Shown one piece after another: positions 2,374 to 52,882 of a DNA stretch of 64,000 nucleotides. Origin of the DNA: Gemmatimonadota bacterium. GTDB lineage: Bacteria; Gemmatimonadota; Gemmatimonadetes; Palauibacterales; KS3-K002. The translations under genes and the position numbers were made by a program. The DNA lies in the NCBI GenBank assembly GCA_039586495.1, contig JBDHKG010000020.1:1181-65180 (forward strand), written 5' to 3'. The first letter of the stretch is position 1, and each line of letters starts with the position of its first letter. The notes beneath the pieces are model-generated. The model was not told the origin of the DNA, ran no database searches, and saw nothing but the letters and a program-made list of their open reading frames with translations.

Positions 2374-5300
2374 TCAGTTGCGCGGGATCCGGCTCTCGTA
2401 CGAGGGTCGCCGGCCCCTGACCGGCGGGTTCTCTTCCAGCAGCCGCATCACTTCCTGGATCGCCCGCTCGAGCTGCGGGTCGCGACCTCTGGCCAGCTCG
2501 GTGGGATCCTCGGGCACCTCGATGTCGGGGTCGACACCGTAGCCCTCCGCGAACCACACGCCGTCCGTGCTGTACATGCGGAAGGTCGGCACCGTGACGA
2601 TGCCGCCGTCGATGAGGCGCGGCACGCCGCTCATACCGATGAGGCCGCCCCAGGTGCGGCTCCCGATGAGCGGCCCGACGCCGTATTCCCTGAAGTAGTA
2701 GGGGAAGGCGTCGCCGCCCGAGCCGCTCCAGCCGTTGATCAGCATGACCTTGGGCCCGAAGTGGGAGACGGGCGGCCACTGCCAGTCAGCGCCGCTGCGC
2801 ACCGCCCAGAAGGCCAGCGGTGGCCGGTGCAGCAGCTCCACAAAGCGGTCGGGGATCTGGCCGCCGCTGTTGAAGCGCTCGTCGATGATCAGCCCGTCCT
2901 TGTGGAACTGCGCGGCGAACTGGCGGACCAGCTCGGTCTGTCCGTCGATCCCCGTGCTGCGCACGTAGATGTAGCCGACACGCCCGTCGGTCGCCTCATC
3001 CACGCGCGCCCGGTTCGCCTCGATCCAGGCCAAGTGACGAAGCCGTGTCTCGCTGGGACGAAGTCGCTCGCCGCTGTGAAGCGTCTCGACCAGCACCTTT
3101 CGCGCGCCATCCGTGCTCGGCCGGCTGTTCACGGTGAGCTCGACCGTCTCGCCCGCCATCCCTTGGAACGCGGCCCAGGGGTCCTTCGACGTATCGAGCG
3201 GCACACCGTTCACCGCCAGCACGTAGTCCCCTTCCTTCACGTCCACGCCGGGCCGCGCGAGCGGCGAGCGGACCTCGCTGTCCCACGGCGCGCCGTCGAT
3301 GATCTTCTTGATCCGGTAGGCGCCGTTCTCCAGCGACCAATCCACGCCCAAGAGACCGACACGGCGTTGCTGCGCGGATTCGGTGTCACCGCCGCCCCGA
3401 TAGGTGTGCGATGCGCTCAGCTCCGCGATCAGCTCGCCCAGCACGTAGTTGACGTCCCAGCGGGTCACGGCGTCCTCGATCAGACGGCCGTACCGCTCGC
3501 GCATGGCGTTCCAATCGACGCCGTGCATGTTGGGATCGTAGAAGAAATCCCGTTCGAGACGCCACGCGTCCGTGAACAGCTGCCGCCACTCCGCCCGCGG
3601 GTCTATCGTTGCCTCCAGCTCGCTCGTGCGCAGCCGCTTCTCCAACTTCTGGTTCGGCTTCACCTCGACGATGAACCACCCTTGGCGCGCAACCAGCATC
3701 TTCTTGCCGTCGGCGGTCACGACGAAGCTCTCTGCATCCTCCACCACCGTCTTCTCTTCACGTTCCTTCAGATCCCAGTAGACGACCGGGCTCTCGTCGT
3801 CGCCCGAGCCCGTCCTCGGCAGCCGCCGATACAGCAGCTTGCCGGAGACAGCTTGCAGCTGGCTGTAGTTGCCCGCCTCCGGCGGCAGCACGACTAGGCG
3901 CTGCTCGAAGCTCTCCAGCTCGATCCCTACCGGCTGCTCGCCCTCTTCTCTCTCCTCCTTCTCTTCCTCCTCGCCCTCTCCCTCCGCAGCTTCCTCGTCG
4001 CTGCGCGGTGCCAGCGGCGACGGCACGTCGGAGCGCAGCGAGACGGCGACGATGTTGGTGGTGTTCGGGTAGATCCACGAGTTGTCCACGTCGCTGTACG
4101 ACGGCCGGAACGTGCGGTTCGAGAGGTGATGGAGCCTGCCTTCCCGCGTATCGTAGAGGAAGATCGCGTCCTGTCGGCTCTCGAGCCCGCGCGAATAGGC
4201 CAGCCAGCGGCTGTCCGGCGACCAGCTGACCCGGAAACCGTTGAGGTCACCATGAATCATCCACATGTCCCGGTCGATCTCGGTCGTGCGCCTGCGCTCC
4301 AGGTCGTGGACGTAGATCCGCTTCGCATGGTCGACGAACGCGAGCTTCTTGCTGTCCGGCGACCAGTAGGGCCGGTAGCGGTAACCGGCGCCGAGTGACG
4401 TCGGGCGCTGTTCTGTGCCCGAGCCGTCCGCTGGCCGGATCGTCAGCTCGTACTCGCCGGAACGGTCGCTCCAGTAGGCGATGTACACCCCGTCCGGCGA
4501 CCAGGTGGGGTAGCGCTCCGCCACACCCGAGCTGGCCGTCAGGTTGCGGATCGGGCCGTGCTCCGCCGGCACCGTGAACACGTCGCCGCGTGCCTCAAAG
4601 ACTGCCCGCGCACCCGTCGGCGAGACCCAGCCGGTTGTGTCTTGCGGGGCGACGTTTTCGGTACGCGGCTTCAGCGTCGCCAGGTCCGTCACCACATCGA
4701 CCTCGACCTCGTGATATCGCTCCGTCGCCAGGTCCAGCAGGTAGAGCCGCCCGCCCGCCTCGAAGACGATCTCCGAGGGCCCGATGGCCGGGAAGTGGAT
4801 GTCGAAGTCGCCTAAGTCCGTCACCTGGCGGAAGGCCTGGGAGTCCAGGTCATAGGCCCAGATGTTGTGCCGCTGGCTGGGACCGCGGTCCGAGAGGAGG
4901 TACAGCGTGCGGCCGTGCCACATGGGGTGGGACTCGTTGGCGTCGCTGGTCGTGATGTTGCGGGAAGAGTAGTCCTCGAGGTTGAAGAGCCAGATGTCGG
5001 GCGCCATGCCACCGCGATAGCGCTTCCAGGTGCGGAAGTCGCGGCTGATCGGTATGTAAGCCAGCCACTCTCCGTCGGGCGAGATTGCGCCGAACTCGCC
5101 GTAGGGAACTGGCAGCTTCTCGGGCAGGCCGCCGTCCTTCGCGGTCCGGAAGAACTGGTTGAAGCGCTGGCGGCCGCTCTCCATGGACGACGCATACAGG
5201 ATGCTGTTGCCGTCCGGGTACCAGTCGAGCACGCGATCGTCCATCGGATGATGGGTGATCCGCACCGGCCCGCCGCCCATCGTCGGGATCGTGTAGATGT

Positions 5301-5738: not shown

Positions 5739-6668
5739 TTAACCGAATGCTGCCCAACCTGGTCCTTTGAGGACATTACGGAGAACGCGCTCCGCCTGTT
5801 TCGGGCGGCCGCTGTAAGCGTGCCAGTTGGCGATCCCGTAACCCAGCGTGGCGTTCTCGATGGGATCGCCCGACCCCGACTCCGCCAGCAGCGCATCCGG
5901 CGTTAGCTCGCCTTTGTACATGAGCAGGAGCCGATGGTAGCTCGCGTTCTCGATGATGTCCATGTCCGCATGGATGGGCTCCAGCACGGCCGCCGCCTCC
6001 GCCTCGCGCCCCAGCCGCCTCAGCGTCATGTAGAGCCAGTGCGAGGTGGCGGCCAGCATGTCCGGGTTGTTCGAGACCTTCAGGCATTCCCGGTAGGCGC
6101 GCAGCGCATTCTCCAGGTCACCGTTCAGGTAGTGGGCGAGCCCCAGGTGGTACCAGATGTTGGAGTGCAGCGAGCTGGTCGGGATGTTGCGGGCGTTGGG
6201 CAGTCCATCCGGCTCGACCTCGTCCGCTGTCCCGGCGACGAGCTGTGCCGCCCGCTCCAGGTCGGCAATTGCGTGGTCGAACTCGCGCACCGTGATGTAG
6301 CGGTGTCCGCGGTGTCGGTACATCCGGGCGTCGTCCGGGTGCTTCTCGATCCCTTCGCTGTAGATGGCGATCGCCTCCCGGTAGTCGCCCAGGTAGGCGG
6401 TGCGCCGGCCCAGCCAGATGATCGCGTCAGCAGCGCTCGGATCGCGATCGTAGTCAGCGCGGGCCTCCGCCAGCTGCGCTTCCCGCTCGGCAAGTGCATC
6501 CGGGGGCAGCTCCGGCGGGTAGAGCGTGTCACCGAAGAGCGAGATCGCCTGGGCCCCGGGCGGTAGCTCCGCCGGGCCGCCCGTGCCGGGTCGCTCGCCT
6601 GTTTCGCCGCAGCCGACGAGCAGGACCGCTGCCGAAAGAGCGGCTGAGAGAACGGACGTCGTACGCAT
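5739..6668 (-). CDS. TPR-repeat lipoprotein.
   Basis: The ORF extends to 6743, but the internal ATG at 6668 gives MRTTSVLSAALSAAVLLVGC, a lipobox signal, with an AGGTGGAGGAG SD just upstream. The body is TPR-like ('YHLGLAHYLNGDLENALRAYRECLK'). Confidence 0.6.
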   Translation of the reverse strand: MRTTSVLSAALSAAVLLVGCGETGERPGTGGPAELPPGAQAISLFGDTLYPPELPPDALAEREAQLAEARADYDRDPSAADAIIWLGRRTAYLGDYREAIAIYSEGIEKHPDDARMYRHRGHRYITVREFDHAIADLERAAQLVAGTADEVEPDGLPNARNIPTSSLHSNIWYHLGLAHYLNGDLENALRAYRECLKVSNNPDMLAATSHWLYMTLRRLGREAEAAAVLEPIHADMDIIENASYHRLLLMYKGELTPDALLAESGSGDPIENATLGYGIANWHAYSGRPKQAERVLRNVLKGPGWAAFG

Positions 6669-6845
6669 ACTCCTCCACCTCGTTGCGGATTGCGCCGTGT
6701 ATGCTAAGCGCTGCAAATCGCCGCTGCCACTGGCCGTTGCCACTCTGTTGCCTCTCTTGGCGCTGGCCCTGCGAGGTGAGGCTGCTGCGCGAACCGGAGG
6801 GTTCCCGGGTCGTTCACTCAGCTGGGATGACTCGAGCGGAGAGAC

Positions 6846-47919: not shown

Positions 47920-48531
47920 CTAGCCACCATACCTGCGGGCGATGATGGCGCCGAAGACGACATTGATCCCGCCAAAACCAGCCGCCATGAACGCGTTGCC
48001 CCATGCCGCTGGGGCGAGAAAAGCCCCGAGGCCCACCAGCATGAAGCAGACCCCCATGATCGGGACGGCTCTCACGGAGAACGCGCCGCCCGTCGTGACG
48101 CCCGTGCCATATAACAACAGCCAGGTGCCCGGCATGGCGTCGAAGAGGCGCGCCGAATAGAGGACCGCCGTGAGCACAGCGCCAGCGACCAGGGGAGGGC
48201 AGAGGCCGAAGACGAAGCGTGCGCCGGCGCCGCGCAGCAGCGGCGCCTTGACGGCTCTGGCTTTGAGAGCCATTGCGACGGCCCCGATGGCGATCGCCAG
48301 GGCAGCCTCGGCGAGCCAGGTGAGGAGCCAGGCGCTGGGGGTCATCTGGCGCGCGGCCAGTGCGGCGGCGGCGAACGCGGTCAGGCCGATGGCCAGGGTG
48401 CCCCACCCGGGGACGGCGGTGAAGGAGCTGGCGCGCGCCATGGTGTCGCGAATGAAGCGGAGGTCATCGAGGGCGCGGGACCGGGTGGGGGAGTGGCCGT
48501 TGCACTGGGGTTGAGAGCGTTCGTTGTTCAT
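47920..48531 (-). CDS. Integral membrane protein (hypothetical), probable partner of the wHTH regulator.
   Basis: 203 aa with five or six TM helices. No recognisable motifs. Confidence 0.5.
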
Positions 48532-48597
48532 GAGGGCTCAAAATAGGGGGTGGGGTTGGTGTTGTCAAGTACTTTGCATTGTAAAGGAGATAGGGGG

Positions 48598-48626
48598 TTG
48601 CGCACTCACGGTCTTCGGTTTATATT
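48598..48626 (+). promoter_or_regulatory. Candidate sigma70-type promoter (TTGCGC-17-TATATT) upstream of dnaE2.
   Basis: -35 TTGCGC at 48598..48603, a 17-nt spacer, then -10 TATATT at 48621..48626, in an AT-richer island. A palindrome AAGTACTT (48567..48574) and the CTTT-N7-AAAG dyad lie just upstream. Confidence 0.35.
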
Positions 48627-48638
48627 CGGTATCCCAGG

Positions 48639-48713
48639 GCGGAGGGGTGACCCACTCCCCCTACCTGCGAAGTGCCCCTCCGCTCTGGACCCACCTTGCG
48701 GTGGGCTTTTTTG
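48639..48713 (+). terminator. Leader or small-RNA-like structure: a 9-bp hairpin plus a canonical intrinsic terminator 39 nt upstream of the dnaE2 ATG.
   Basis: Hairpin 1 is gcggagggg (48639..48647) paired with cccctccgc (48675..48683). The terminator has stem cccacc (48690..48695), loop ttgc and stem ggtggg (48700..48705), then cttttttg (48706..48713). Confidence 0.55.
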
Positions 48714-48751
48714 TCGCCAGGGCTTACGGGCTTTATTCGGGACACTGGTTT

Positions 48752-51700
48752 ATGCCCTCATACGCCGAGCTCCACTGTCACTCCGCCTTCTCCCTCCTCG
48801 ACGGCGCCTCCACGCCGGAAGTCCTGGTTCGACGGGCGGTGGAGCTCGGCATCCGCGCCCTGGCGCTCACCGACCACGACGACCTGGGCGGCGCGGTGCG
48901 CTTCAGCCGGGCGGCCCGGGAGGCGGGATTGGAGGCGATCGTGGGGGCTGAGCTCACGATCGTGCCGCCGGAGGACGCTGCCGGTCCTCCCAACCATCTC
49001 ACGCTGCTGGCGCGGACCGCCGAGGGCTACGCGAACCTCTCGGAGCTGGTGACGCGGGGACGGTCGGGCACGGCGGGAACCCTCGCTTCATGTCGCGCGA
49101 CACGGGTTGGGATGTGTGACGGGCCACCGCGCTCCAAATGTCCGCTCGCGGCTCCCGCCGTGCCCTCCCTGTCGCGGAAAGGAGCCCGCCCCGAATCAAC
49201 TTCGAGAGTCCCCATCACGAACAGCTGGGCGCCGGACAGGGGGCGCCCACGGGTGACCTGGGAGGACCTGGCGGAGCTGGGATCCGGGCTCTTCGCCCTC
49301 ACGGGCTGTCCGCAAGGCGAGCTGGCCCGGCGGGTGCGGGCGGGCGATGGGAAGGGGACGCGGGAGCTGCTCGATTTCCTGCGGAGCGCCTTCCACGGCT
49401 ACTTGGCCGTGGAAGTCTGGGATCATGCGTTGCCGGAGGAACGGGCGCTGGCGGATCGCTTGCTGGAGCTGGCGGACCGCCAGGGGCTGCCGGCGGTGGC
49501 GACCAACGATGTGCACTATGCGCTGCCGTCGGGCCGAATCGTCCACGATCTGCTCACCTGCCTGCGCCATCAGGTGACGCTGGATGAGGCGGGCAGGCGG
49601 CTGCGCCCCAACGGCGAGTGGCATCTGAAGCCGTCCTCGGTGGTGTGGCGGCGCTGGCGCCAGCGGCCCGACGTGGTGGAGAACACCCACGGCGTCGCCG
49701 CCGAGTGTTCTTTCCGCTTGGCGGACCTCTCGCCGGCGATGCCGGGGTTCCAGGTGCCGCCCGGCGTGACGACGCAGGAGTATCTGGAGCGGTTGGTCTG
49801 GCGGGGTGCGCTGGAGCGCTACGGTGGGGCAGGGCAGGTGCGGAACGGCGATCCGATCTGCATTTCCGCTCCTGTGGAGGAGGGAGGAGTCGGGGAGATC
49901 GTCTCGCTCCACCGCTCGCAGCCTCCTGCGCCGCCCCCGGATCTCCAGCGCGGCCGCACGGTTGAGCGCGAGCCGCCGACCACCCCACCGGCCCTTGCAA
50001 AGGAAGTACTGCGGCCTGGCCGAGGCACGTCCAGGCACTTGAGCGAGGCGGGTCAAATCTGGAACAGTGACTCGAGTGGCGTGGTCGTTCCGACTAGGGA
50101 TGGGGCGCCGGATGGGTCGTCGAGCGTAACTCGCGAGCGGTGGAGCGAGATGATCCCACCGGCGCCCCGTCTAAACGGCGGCTCGGGTCTCAGGCAGCGA
50201 GTGCGTCGCCAGATCCGCCACGAACTCGAGGTGATCAAGCGCTTGGACCTGGCCGGGTACTTCCTCACCGTCTGGGACATCGTCCGCTTCGCCCGGCGCC
50301 AAGGGATCCTGTTGCAGGGACGCGGCTCGGCCGCCAACTCCTGCGTCTGCTACTGCCTGGGGATCACGGCGGTGGATCCCATCAAGTTCGAGCTGTTGTT
50401 CGAGCGCTTCCTCTCGGAGGAGCGGGGCGGCGCGCCCGACATCGATCTCGACATCGAGCACGAGCAGCGCGAGGAGGTGCTCCAGTACGTCTACCGCAAG
50501 TACGGCCGCGAGCGGGCGGCGATGGTCTGCGAGACGATCACCTATCGCGGCCGCTCCGCGGTGCGCGATGCCGCCCGCGTGCTCGGCTTTTCCACCGATG
50601 TGGCCGATCGACTGGCGGCGGAAGTGGAGCGCTGCGAAGCGGTAGAGGCGGCCGATGTGCTGGAGAACGGCGGACTGGCCGCCTGCGGGCTCGATCCGCG
50701 GGACCGTCGTGTCGCGGCGCTGGTCCACGTGGTGCGCGGGCTCGACCAACTACCGCGTCACCGCTCCATCCATGTAGGCGGCTTCGTCCTCACCGCGAGC
50801 CCACTCTCCCTGGTCGTCCCCATCGAGCCGGCGGCGATGCCGGAGCGCACCGTCATCCAGTGGGACAAGGACGACCTCGACTTCGTGGGCCTCATCAAGA
50901 TCGATCTGTTGGGCCTGGGGATGCTTACCTGCCTGGCGAAGGCGATCCGCTACATCCGCGAGACGCGCGGTGTGGCCATCGACCTGGCCCAGCTGCCGGC
51001 GGGCGACCCCGAGGTCTACCGGATGATCCAGCAGGCGGACACGGTAGGCGTCTTCCAGATCGAGAGCCGGGCGCAGATGAACTCGCTGCCGCGCTTGAAA
51101 CCCGGGGATTTCTACGATCTGGTCGTCCAGGTGGCGCTCATCCGGCCGGGCCCCATCCAGGGCGAGATGGTGCACCCCTATGTGCGGCGGCGGCGCGGCG
51201 AGGAGCCGGTGACGTATCTGCATCCGGATCTTGAGCCGATCCTCAAGCGGACGCTGGGCGTGCCGCTCTTCCAGGAGCAGGGGATGAAGGTCGCGGTGGC
51301 GATGGCGAACTTCACGCCGGGCCAGGCGGACGCATTGCGCCGGGCGATGGGGTTCAAGCGCTCGAGGGAGGCGATGGCGCTGATCGAGCCGGCGCTACGG
51401 GCGGGGATGACGGCGCGCGGGATCACCACAGACGTGCAGGATCAGATCGTCAAGCAGCTCACCGCCTTCGCCAACTACGGTTTTCCGGAGAGCCATGCGG
51501 CGTCATTCGCGCTCCTGGTCTACGCCTCGGCGTATCTCAAGCGCTACTACGCGCCCGAGTTCTACTGCGCGCTGCTCAACGCGCAACCGATGGGGTTCTA
51601 CGCGCCGGGGACGCTCGTTCATGATGCACGTCGCCACGGGGTCGAGATGCGGCCCGTCGATCTCGCGTACTCGAGCTGGGACTGCACGCTCGAACCCGGC

Positions 51701-52699
51701 ATCGAGGAAGACGGGGTGCGGCAGGGTCGTCTCGCTTCATGTCGCGCGGCACCGTGCCGATGTCGAAGGACCGGCGGGGGCGCTCCAAATGTCCGCTCAA
51801 CGACACCTGCCGCACCCCTGGACTCCGGGGACACGGCAGGAGATCCTCGAGCGGCCTTGTCACCACGAAAGGGAGGGCACGGCACCGACCCACGAGCGGA
51901 CATTTGGAGCGCCCCGGCCCGTCTCGTACACGTGCCCGAGTCGCGCGACATGAAGCGAGGGGTCGGTGCCGTGCCCGACCGGCCGGCTCTGCGGATCGGA
52001 CTGCGCTATGTGCGCGGGCTGGGCTCGAAGGCGGAGGAGAAGCTCAAGGCGGCATGGGAGGCCGGGGGACGTTTCCGGTCGGTGGAGGATGTGGTGCGGC
52101 GGTCGGGCCTCGGCCTCCCCTCCCTCAAGACGCTGGCGGAGGCCGGCGCCTTCCGGACGCTCTGGGGGCCGGGCCGGCGCTCCGCCCTCTGGGAGATGCT
52201 GGCGAAGCTCGCCCAGCGGCCACTGGCGCCGGTGGATTCGGCGCCTCATCCGTACCCGCACCCGAAACTGAAGGAGATGACCCGGGTCGAGTTCATCGCC
52301 GCCGATTACCTGACCACCGGACTCTGCACCCACGGGCATCCCATGGAGCACCTGCGGGCAACACTGCGCGCTCACGGTGTGGTCTCGGCCGAGGAGCTCA
52401 AGCGGGTCCGCAGCGGTCAGCGAGTGAAGGTGGCTGGCGTGGTGATCTGCCGGCAGCGGCCGGGCACCGCCAAAGGCGTGTGCTTCATCACTCTGGAGGA
52501 TGAGACCGGGTTCTCCAACTTCGTGGTCTACGCCGACCTGTTTCAGCGCTACCGCCGCACCATCGTCCGCTCACCGGTGCTCTTGATCGAGGGGATCGCC
52601 CAGCACGAGCAGGACGTGATCAACGTGCAGGCACGGCGGATCACCGCGATCGAGCCGACCGCGGGCGCCGACGTCATCGAGAGCCACGACTTTCACTGA
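48752..52699 (+). CDS. dnaE2: Error-prone DNA polymerase III alpha-subunit homolog (DnaE2/ImuC type), lengthened by three in-frame palindromic-element insertions.
   Basis: Starts MPSYAELHCHSAFSLLDGAS, the PHP domain. The polymerase core includes 'GFVLTASPL...IDLLGLGMLT...GVFQIESRAQM', and the OB-fold tail is 'VKVAGVVICRQRPGTAKGVCFITLEDETG'. The ORF-track start at 48524 is probably too long. Confidence 0.85.
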   Translation: MPSYAELHCHSAFSLLDGASTPEVLVRRAVELGIRALALTDHDDLGGAVRFSRAAREAGLEAIVGAELTIVPPEDAAGPPNHLTLLARTAEGYANLSELVTRGRSGTAGTLASCRATRVGMCDGPPRSKCPLAAPAVPSLSRKGARPESTSRVPITNSWAPDRGRPRVTWEDLAELGSGLFALTGCPQGELARRVRAGDGKGTRELLDFLRSAFHGYLAVEVWDHALPEERALADRLLELADRQGLPAVATNDVHYALPSGRIVHDLLTCLRHQVTLDEAGRRLRPNGEWHLKPSSVVWRRWRQRPDVVENTHGVAAECSFRLADLSPAMPGFQVPPGVTTQEYLERLVWRGALERYGGAGQVRNGDPICISAPVEEGGVGEIVSLHRSQPPAPPPDLQRGRTVEREPPTTPPALAKEVLRPGRGTSRHLSEAGQIWNSDSSGVVVPTRDGAPDGSSSVTRERWSEMIPPAPRLNGGSGLRQRVRRQIRHELEVIKRLDLAGYFLTVWDIVRFARRQGILLQGRGSAANSCVCYCLGITAVDPIKFELLFERFLSEERGGAPDIDLDIEHEQREEVLQYVYRKYGRERAAMVCETITYRGRSAVRDAARVLGFSTDVADRLAAEVERCEAVEAADVLENGGLAACGLDPRDRRVAALVHVVRGLDQLPRHRSIHVGGFVLTASPLSLVVPIEPAAMPERTVIQWDKDDLDFVGLIKIDLLGLGMLTCLAKAIRYIRETRGVAIDLAQLPAGDPEVYRMIQQADTVGVFQIESRAQMNSLPRLKPGDFYDLVVQVALIRPGPIQGEMVHPYVRRRRGEEPVTYLHPDLEPILKRTLGVPLFQEQGMKVAVAMANFTPGQADALRRAMGFKRSREAMALIEPALRAGMTARGITTDVQDQIVKQLTAFANYGFPESHAASFALLVYASAYLKRYYAPEFYCALLNAQPMGFYAPGTLVHDARRHGVEMRPVDLAYSSWDCTLEPGIEEDGVRQGRLASCRAAPCRCRRTGGGAPNVRSTTPAAPLDSGDTAGDPRAALSPRKGGHGTDPRADIWSAPARLVHVPESRDMKRGVGAVPDRPALRIGLRYVRGLGSKAEEKLKAAWEAGGRFRSVEDVVRRSGLGLPSLKTLAEAGAFRTLWGPGRRSALWEMLAKLAQRPLAPVDSAPHPYPHPKLKEMTRVEFIAADYLTTGLCTHGHPMEHLRATLRAHGVVSAEELKRVRSGQRVKVAGVVICRQRPGTAKGVCFITLEDETGFSNFVVYADLFQRYRRTIVRSPVLLIEGIAQHEQDVINVQARRITAIEPTAGADVIESHDFH
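49082..49180 (-). repeat. Truncated copy of palindromic MITE-like element family 1, inverted relative to the 51731 copy, inside dnaE2 and in-frame.
   Basis: The 18-bp terminus ctcgcttcatgtcgcgcg (49082..49099) is identical to 51731..51748. The inner box gcgctccaaatgtccgctc (49129..49147) is identical to the inner repeat of the full copy. ccgtgccctccc (49158..49169) is the reverse complement of gggagggcacgg in the full copy. The second half is missing. Confidence 0.7.
49897..50153 (+). mobile_element. Palindromic MITE-like element family 2 (~257 bp) inside dnaE2, in-frame.
   Basis: The terminal inverted repeats atcgtctcgctccaccgctcgc (49897..49918) and gcgagcggtggagcgagatgat (50132..50153) match at 21 of 22 positions. 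The element encodes a low-complexity ~90-aa Pro/Gly/Ser-rich insert ('...SLHRSQPPAPPPDLQRGRTVEREPPTTPPALAKE...') absent from typical DnaE2. Confidence 0.6.
51731..51959 (+). mobile_element. Full-length palindromic MITE-like element family 1 (229 bp, nested inverted repeats) inside dnaE2, in-frame.
   Basis: The outer TIRs are ctcgcttcatgtcgcgcg (51731..51748) and cgcgcgacatgaagcgag (51942..51959), an 18/18 match. The inner inverted repeats are ggggcgctccaaatgtccgctc (51778..51799) and gagcggacatttggagcgcccc (51894..51915), a 22/22 match. The central part has a further cctgccg...cggcagg dyad. The element encodes '...LASCRAAPCRCRRTGGGAPNVRSTTPAAPLDSGDTAGDPRAALSPRKGGHGTDPRADIWSAPARLVHVPESRDMKRG...' between the conserved DnaE2 segments 'SSWDCTLEPG' and 'PALRIGLRYVRGLG'. 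Confidence 0.75.
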
Positions 52700-52882
52700 C
52701 GCGAGCCTCTAGTGATTCGCTTTTGAGGACGACAGGAGCTGTGCTCTGCCTCCAAACGGTCAAAGGCTAACGGGGCTCTCAAGAGGTTGGCAGCGAAAGC
52801 CATCGCGAAGCATATTGTAGGGTCAACGCGGTTTAAATCCAACTGATTCTTCCATTCGAGTCGTTCGAGCCCACGTGCCGCT

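Follow-up and report, generated by a model that had tools for sequence, protein, structure and literature searches.

Insertions in the dnaE2 gene

The 64-kb window analyzed here (64,000 nucleotides of contig JBDHKG010000020.1, assembly GCA_039586495.1, from a Gemmatimonadota bacterium) contains dnaE2, encoding an error-prone DNA polymerase, and this gene hosts three insertions built from hairpin-forming repeats, which we named E1, E2, and E3 (Table 1). The product matches the error-prone DNA polymerase model NF004225 with 1253.6 bits, split over three stretches, and carries the Pfam domains PHP, DNA_pol3_alpha, finger, HHH_6, and OB. A preliminary description of the locus had reported E1, as a 229-bp palindrome resembling a MITE (miniature inverted-repeat transposable element) inside a 1391-codon dnaE2 frame, and had missed E2 and E3. 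The frame (48524..52699) is indeed open, and E1 lies within it at the place described, between the segments SSWDCTLEPG and ALRIGLRYVRGLG. The N-terminus, however, had been over-called by 76 codons: the ATG at 48752 is the likely start, judging from homologs that share the start MPSYAELHCHS.

Two nested inverted repeats had been noted in E1, and both are perfect: one of 18 nt (51731-51748 and 51942-51959) and one of 22 nt (51777-51798 and 51894-51915), which can be prolonged to 30 nt with 93% identity. Both stand above chance, with shuffles of the window giving 0.31 expected matches for the 18-nt motif and 0.00 for the 22-nt motif. As RNA, the E1 region folds at −176.9 kcal/mol, far better than shuffled sequences (z = −7.95). 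The anatomy differs from that first proposed. What had been called "terminal" and "inner" repeats correspond to a pair of motifs that hardly vary, m1 (CTCGCTTCATGTCGCGC) and m2 (GCGCTCCAAATGTCCGCTC), so that the supposed termini are conserved motifs internal to each of two units. Each half has an outer stem of its own, and the repeat therefore spans about 51711-51982 rather than 229 bp. Measured from arm to arm (51713-51976), E1 comprises 264 nt, a multiple of 3, whereas 229 is not. Compared with insert-free orthologs, the extra segment covers 51695-51985, i.e., 291 nt or about 95 residues instead of the roughly 75 originally estimated.

Both E1 units have perfect stems, of 13 nt in the left unit (DNA fold −32.3 kcal/mol, z = −3.45) and 17 nt in the right unit (−37.2 kcal/mol, z = −4.51). 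E2 is a solo unit with 80% identity to the right unit of E1. E3 is a more divergent relative whose ends are similar, with 34-nt inverted repeats at 49886-49919 and 50133-50166; its right hairpin folds at z = −3.9, and the fold of the left hairpin is not significant.

Table 1. dnaE2 and its hairpin insertions, in window coordinates
Feature	Position	Strand	Basis and details
dnaE2, error-prone DNA polymerase, 1315 aa	48752..52699	+	NF004225 and Pfam; hosts all three insertions
E2, solo hairpin unit	49059..49170	+	nhmmer E = 1.3e-24; arms 49066-49081 / 49150-49165; m1 49082-49098; m2 49129-49147
E3, divergent relative, pair of short-core hairpins	~49873..50172	.	variant motif CTCGCTCCACCGCTCGC at 49903 (+) and 50133 (-)
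E1, convergent pair of hairpin units	51711..51982	.	nhmmer and nested inverted repeats; contains the 229-bp feature
E1 left unit	51711..51817	+	nhmmer E = 8e-20; arms 51713-51725 / 51806-51818; m1 51731-51747; m2 51780-51798
Spacer separating the E1 units	51818..51870	.	read from sequence
E1 right unit	51871..51982	-	nhmmer E = 1.9e-23; arms 51875-51891 / 51960-51976; m2 51894-51912; m1 51943-51959

An invariant core within a covarying stem

Motifs m1 and m2 sit inside a hairpin unit of about 110 nt (composites reach 190 to 480 nt), whose closing stem differs among copies by compensatory changes. The consensus from an alignment of 125 units reads GGTCGGG, a variable 5′ arm, m1, about 30 variable nt, m2, a complementary 3′ arm, and CCCTCCC, with a closing stem of 13 to 17 bp, a variable apical region, and an asymmetric core. 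RNAalifold analysis of these units gave an outer helix in which 14 stem pairs show double compensatory changes. Stem cells paired in 90.5% of cases compared to 79.8% in shuffles, double changes were found in 322 stem cells compared to 92 (none of 500 shuffles matched this), and pairing fell to 34 to 57% when the partners were slid out of register. m1 and m2 themselves are essentially invariant, their positions never varying, and could form an irregular 9-bp helix with internal loops.

No relevant Rfam 15 match was obtained at E ≤ 1 over positions 48400-52800, and none at gathering score in four other loci. Likewise, six-frame peptides of the unit had no match at E ≤ 1 among 5.8 billion proteins.

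Gain, loss, and rearrangement among orthologs

The preliminary description had named a homologous protein segment in DnaE2 orthologs as one observation that would speak against an insertion. No such segment occurs at the site in distant DnaE2 proteins, and close relatives vary in the presence, number, and orientation of units. The outgroup proteins P0036, P0045, P0065, and P0109 run continuously across all three sites (WDCTLEDGALRVGLRYV at E1, RYGDRLTARHREQLRHEL at E3, and LVTAARSGDRGAPAVTW at E2). In 17 Gemmatimonadota dnaE2 loci the three sites have lengths of 38 to 97, 42 to 185, and 80 to 239 aa; the units in them differ in number, face either way, and are read in several frames. Some orthologs (P0019, P0021, and P0013) have nearly empty sites.

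The most informative comparison was with locus L096 (CP070823.1), which is about 97% identical to the window over the dnaE2 coding blocks (89 to 98% in individual BLAST segments). E3 is cleanly absent from L096, relative to which it forms a 276-nt (92-codon) insertion. It is also missing from the four closest homologs (P0001-P0004) and is therefore a recent gain; in other lineages the same loop holds units of the main family. E1 is restructured in L096: the left unit has an internal deletion, the spacer contains an additional nested unit, and the 68-nt core of the right unit has the opposite orientation between stem arms that are identical. In L054, L013, P0003, and P0004, E2 is either missing or excised, P0003 and P0004 showing an excision footprint within the arms, and L103 retains as a remnant only the 5′ arm and the start of m1.

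Independent assemblies, among them complete chromosomes of metagenome-assembled genomes (MAGs), contain the same insertions, which excludes an assembly artefact, another caveat raised in the preliminary description. Judged from these alignments, E1, E2, and E3 are insertions, neither a protein domain nor an artefact of assembly, and from one genome to a close relative units are gained and lost, nest in one another, undergo partial duplication, and flip.

Other insertions were seen in DnaE2 homologs. P0076 (59% identical) carries a different repeat, with peptides GTGAQGH...PRAPVPP, at the E1 loop and near the N-terminus, which suggests that the E1 loop attracts other repeat families too. In the more distant DnaE2-like proteins P0116 and P0120, a palm/thumb insertion of about 250 aa is conserved between both and looks like real protein.

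Reading frame and protein context

Across 34 dnaE2 loci, 56 of 57 site instances were in-frame and free of stops, with anchor-to-anchor lengths of 63 to 681 nt; about one third would be in-frame by chance. Because frame is kept in this way, the inserts are, as far as the coding sequences tell, translated, adding loop peptides to a polymerase that is intact in other respects. Motifs m1 and m2 are open in five of the six frames. Which peptide results depends on the frame and on the direction of the unit (examples are LASCRA, SLHVAR, RDMKRG, and ADIWSA), and the junctions are not conserved.

All three insertion sites are surface loops of DnaE2 that vary naturally, and they coincide with regions that are variable in solved structures of Pol III alpha. 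Homology to Taq Pol III alpha (2hpi) places E3 in a linker that is longer by about 50 residues in the Taq enzyme, and E1 in a turn immediately preceding the helix-hairpin-helix region. Apart from the inserts, the polymerase appears functional, with full-length open reading frames (ORFs) of 1221 to 1369 aa and the catalytic motif PDIDID, and DnaE2 of the window and of L022 share 86% amino-acid identity in aligned blocks.

Distribution of the family and its host genes

Loci were collected by exact match to the 19-mer of m2, in species-representative genomes (at least 119 loci) and in metagenome contigs (107 loci). The family is thus present in at least 226 loci, nearly all of Gemmatimonadota origin, with at least 21 MAGs plus metagenomes as carriers, and among the matches listed all genome hits are Gemmatimonadota MAGs except for two chance matches. 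These many further copies support the early suggestion of an undescribed palindromic family dispersed in this lineage. In viral contigs m2 had no match and m1 two chance-level matches, giving no link to phages. Within the 64-kb window, a profile search found units in dnaE2 only.

In the genome set, dnaE2 accounts, among the matches listed, for 17 of 119 loci and 48 of 206 units. The independent metagenome set gave similar figures, with 17 of 107 loci and 37 of 167 units. Altogether, 369 units were detected among the listed matches: 85 in dnaE2, 4 in imuB, 224 without a long spanning ORF, and 56 with a spanning open frame, none of which resembles a real or recurrent protein. Most long ORFs across intergenic units were rejected as genes, being spurious GC-rich frames, and no recurrent genic host other than dnaE2 and imuB was found among these 369 units. 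By our estimate from gene and chromosome lengths, dnaE2 and imuB together make up about 0.15% of the genome.

The imuB host is a protein of Y-family fold, with IMS and IMS_C above Pfam thresholds, and carries an in-frame unit in four loci. It was identified as imuB of an imuA-imuB cassette because the gene beside it encodes a RecA fold and has ImuA as its best specific match. In L201 (2384-5323, − strand) this cassette comprises the imuA-like (RecA-fold) gene and imuB, with a four-helix-bundle ORF of the 23S rRNA intervening-sequence type between them (4178..4570); as in the window, dnaE2 lies elsewhere. In L030 and L057, from different MAGs, intergenic units lie a few nt past the stop codon (...LIEKYQLE*) of the same conserved gene, at apparently orthologous positions, and resemble 3′-end elements of the repetitive extragenic palindromic (REP) kind.

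Conservation beyond silent sites

Some orthologous units, at the same site and in the same orientation in different species, are 83 to 95% identical compared to 59 to 72% at fourfold-degenerate sites of the same gene pair. Examples are 93 versus 68% for E2 between the window and L022, 93 versus 64% for E1 between the window and L077, and 95 versus 72% for E3 between L077 and L010. Other orthologous units share little beyond m1 and m2. Since neither the frame nor the orientation of reading is shared among units, the constraint acts on nucleotides and not on peptides. The family thus displays both turnover and, for some copies, conservation beyond the neutral expectation.

Arrays, subfamilies, and signs of mobility

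A search for target-site duplications, proposed in the preliminary description, detected none specific to individual copies: the longest string shared by the two flanks averaged 3.85 within copies and 3.80 after permutation. The consensus (T)CGCG found on both sides of units is largely due to nesting, with about a third of units lying inside another unit.

Nesting also produces "onion" arrays, in which 42-nt 5′ modules (arm plus m1) and 43-nt 3′ modules follow in mirror order (L003, 628-874), and half-units form tandem arrays in L070 (5327-5527, four repeats with a 61-nt period) and L119 (1121-1619, three with a 153-nt period). The four motifs of L070 at 61-nt spacing were considered as a CRISPR-like array and rejected, being tandem half-units without variable spacers. 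Convergent pairs such as E1 occur in L024, L039, L040, L055, L072, L101, and L108, and at the E1 and E3 sites of many dnaE2 genes.

A 189-bp subfamily has the shared core set in longer arms, with 19-nt terminal inverted repeats (TIRs), sharp CTAGTGTTCGGCCACAGTG.../...CACTGTGGCCGAACACTAG ends, and unrelated flanks (L014, 1647-1836, and L027, L044, L064, L097, L104, and L110). Loci sharing the flank CATGACCACTGTG had been considered as a master or orthologous copy, which was rejected since they belong to this subfamily, with TIRs of their own in unrelated surroundings. Both ends of the subfamily have TA within CTAG. Duplication of TA at CTAG is typical of IS630, and the ends would be compatible with such a duplication.

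All-against-all clustering of ORFs from the genome loci (at least 119) revealed no recurrent transposase or REP-associated tyrosine transposase (RAYT); only dnaE2, its neighbors, and large paralogous families recurred.

Conserved sequences upstream of dnaE2

The leader of about 155 nt directly 5′ of the dnaE2 ATG (48596-48751, + strand) was more conserved than the coding sequence in 13 loci. It contains a 13-bp stem (CCCAGGGCGGAGGGG / CCCCTCCGCTCTGG), in which changes from G.U to A-U and from C-G to U.G, or the reverse, fit sense-strand RNA only, and, at 48690-48715, an intrinsic-terminator-like hairpin with a T-run (hairpin 48690-48705, then T6). There was no Rfam match to the leader, which from its sequence is a candidate for an undescribed leader of attenuator or riboswitch-like type. 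Conservation of this DNA also explains why the 76-codon "extension" of the frame (48524-48751) is apparently conserved between genomes.

A palindromic motif, TGTCAAGTACTTTG-N5-(C/T)AAAG, lies at 48562-48590 and upstream of every dnaE2 examined, and its opposite strand provides the TTGACA −35 of a divergent membrane-protein gene (47920..48531). The motif may be an operator; a search of the region upstream of imuA-imuB did not detect it. In L096, about 300 extra nt (~6433-6741) separate it from the dnaE2 leader and hold an 18-nt palindrome (6495-6531), which makes this segment another dnaE2-adjacent indel between near-identical genomes.

Origin of the insertions and alternative explanations

Taken together, it is probable that E1 consists of two inverted copies of a ~110-nt hairpin repeat that belongs to a new non-coding family, is dispersed in Gemmatimonadota, and has been inserted and translated in dnaE2. 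Such units could spread and rearrange via folded single-stranded or cruciform DNA, as REP/REPIN sequences or other hairpin-recognized sites do, and a trans-acting protein reading the invariant internal-loop motifs may take part. The lack of duplications, the nesting of units in the loops of others, excision between arms, and core inversion point to processes on folded DNA and fit the participation of such a protein. The concentration in dnaE2 and imuB would reflect an insertion preference, selective retention in both genes, or both.

Several points weigh against this interpretation. We infer mobility from distribution and from presence and absence, not from mechanism, and for the main family neither a mobilizing enzyme, a parent insertion sequence (IS), nor a target-site duplication was found at the loci. 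The stem contains both G-U and A-C mismatches, and the hairpin might act as DNA or as RNA. Selection of loci by exact m2 match, in the genome set among the matches listed, may have inflated the share of dnaE2 if intergenic copies decay faster. Finally, the excess conservation of some units would not be expected of passively carried selfish DNA and could indicate a function for the host or gene conversion. Passive carriage does not account for this conservation or for the association with dnaE2 and imuB; insertion preference, retention as regulatory hairpins, and a mechanistic link to error-prone synthesis are candidate causes.

The last two causes lead to alternatives centered on the ImuA-ImuB-DnaE2 mutasome. 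Units in dnaE2 and imuB might be kept as functional mRNA or DNA hairpins with a protein-binding loop, throttling or co-regulating the mutasome, with mobility being secondary. This overlaps partly with the interpretation above, and as an explanation in its own right we regard it as tentative and rather unlikely. The two mutasome genes are the sole recurrent genic hosts among the matches listed, very stable folds occur within the coding sequence, several orthologous units show the excess over fourfold sites, and m1 and m2 stay invariant despite differing frames and orientations, as expected of a constraint on nucleotides. Yet copy number, orientation, and presence vary among close relatives, down to the nearly empty sites noted above, about 76% of the listed copies are intergenic, and the orientation bias that an RNA element would show is absent. 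A broader functional tie to the mutasome, in which units would serve as expression-control modules or would be products or substrates of snap-back or template-switch synthesis, seems to us doubtful; if true, it would connect a family of palindromic repeats with SOS mutagenesis in a way not known before.

In one form, such a tie would have the mutasome itself make or spread the units, with error-prone snap-back or template-switch synthesis, preferentially near its own genes, creating the arms and copying the cores. Arms that are always complementary yet differ in sequence, nested layers, core flips, the lack of target-site duplications, and the confinement of enrichment to dnaE2 and imuB (among the matches listed) would fit this. 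This is nevertheless pure conjecture and quite improbable, as no such activity of DnaE2 is established, no mechanism of cis-preference is known, and units are also common at intergenic sites.

An intein, intron, or other element removed before the mature protein is formed could be imagined, since polymerase genes are classic intein hosts and the hairpin joins the ends of the insert, but we give this very little credence: the inserts are of 40 to 100 aa, variable, frame-dependent, and free of intein blocks, no intron or ribozyme was matched in Rfam, and a frame kept intact and free of stops in 56 of 57 instances would be needless in a spliced RNA. A lineage-specific protein domain or loop, suggested by the open frame and the position between conserved blocks, is refuted by outgroups that lack the segment, by the same DNA at hundreds of non-coding sites, by unrelated peptides from several frames and both orientations, and by the E3 polymorphism between near-identical genomes. 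Equally refuted are assembly artefacts and a decaying pseudogene; assemblies can generate palindromes and several insertions in one gene could suggest decay, but the same units occupy the same sites in 34 independent dnaE2 loci, which stem from different projects and some of which lie on complete MAG chromosomes, in genes with intact ORFs, the PDIDID motif, and high identity between the window and L022.

Comparison with known repeat systems

Rickettsia offers the textbook curiosity of palindromes inserted in-frame, the Rickettsia palindromic elements (RPEs), for which the work of Ogata et al. 2000/2002 is summarized in PMC10969869. RPEs are hairpin repeats of about 100 to 150 bp that are found in-frame in protein genes, are translated as surface peptides compatible with the fold, and also occur between genes (PMC10969869). 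The likeness to RPEs noted in the preliminary description stands as regards a hairpin-forming, in-frame, translated insertion, and additional intergenic copies are a further shared trait. It does not extend to the host range, RPEs occupying many unrelated genes whereas among the matches listed the recurrent hosts are dnaE2, with 85 units, and imuB, with 4, and no others. RPEs are, moreover, described as encoding a conserved peptide, while the units described here are read in several frames and orientations and are conserved as nucleotides. RPEs belong to the Rickettsiales and our units to a different phylum, and the likeness is one of description.

REP and REPIN sequences are mostly extragenic hairpins in convergent inverted pairs, without target-site duplications, with compensatory stems and sometimes at orthologous positions. 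The units resemble them in their extragenic majority, inverted doublets, lack of duplications, compensatory stem changes, and partial orthologous persistence. REPs, however, measure 20 to 40 nt, compared to about 110 nt for the units with their large asymmetric conserved core, and the units are also intragenic. The GTAG/CGTC tag of REPs (compare PMC3733652) is not found in the units, whose arms begin with GGTCGGG and end with CCCTCCC. No RAYT-like gene was seen beside units in the genome set (at least 119 loci).

Bacterial MITEs, such as Correia/NEMIS, ERIC, BOX, Coxiella QMITE1, and IS630-derived elements, are small, non-coding, multi-copy sequences with inverted repeats and occasional in-frame fusions (PMC10969869, PMC5896051). 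The MITE-like character proposed for E1 holds for size (below about 500 bp), non-coding nature, dispersed copies, terminal inverted repeats, and presence/absence polymorphism; it fails for the target-site duplication that flanks each copy of a MITE, which the main family does not show. No parent transposase was seen in the genome set (at least 119 loci), and strict membership among MITEs is not established. The layout of the main family is also the opposite of a MITE: the TIR ends of MITEs are bound by transposase, whereas in the units the internal parts are the most conserved and the ends vary.

Integron attC sites are folded hairpins in which the stems and the terminal structure vary and the unpaired central region is conserved. 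The units may be said to work like attC sites only in that both would be recombination-type sites in the form of hairpins of this build; the attC core sites RYYYAAC/GTTRRRY, an integrase, and a cassette context do not accompany the units, whose internal motifs are strictly conserved. Inteins differ in being of at least about 130 aa, with splicing blocks and junction nucleophiles, whereas the inserts are of 40 to 100 aa with junctions that are not conserved.

No equivalent repeat is described in a review of MITEs (PMC10969869) or in a survey of Pol III alpha homologs (PMC3919608). The insertions in dnaE2 represent a second, independent case of in-frame palindromic insertion, in a distant, free-living phylum, and an invariant asymmetric core within a freely covarying stem is an architecture not described for bacterial repeats. 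About a quarter of the copies detected among the matches listed reside in two damage-inducible mutagenesis genes, in three loops that are always the same, and dozens of species keep them in-frame. Should this bias reflect targeting or function, it would link the biology of repeat elements to the control or activity of error-prone polymerases, and the three loops with their natural filled and empty alleles would offer a tractable system for studying how a polymerase tolerates large loop insertions. Should it reflect tolerance only, the family would be a clean example of host-gene selection trapping and shaping selfish DNA. The best-supported placement is thus a new hairpin repeat family, akin to REP/REPIN sequences, MITEs, or RPEs, that resides in tolerant loops of DnaE2 and is translated there.

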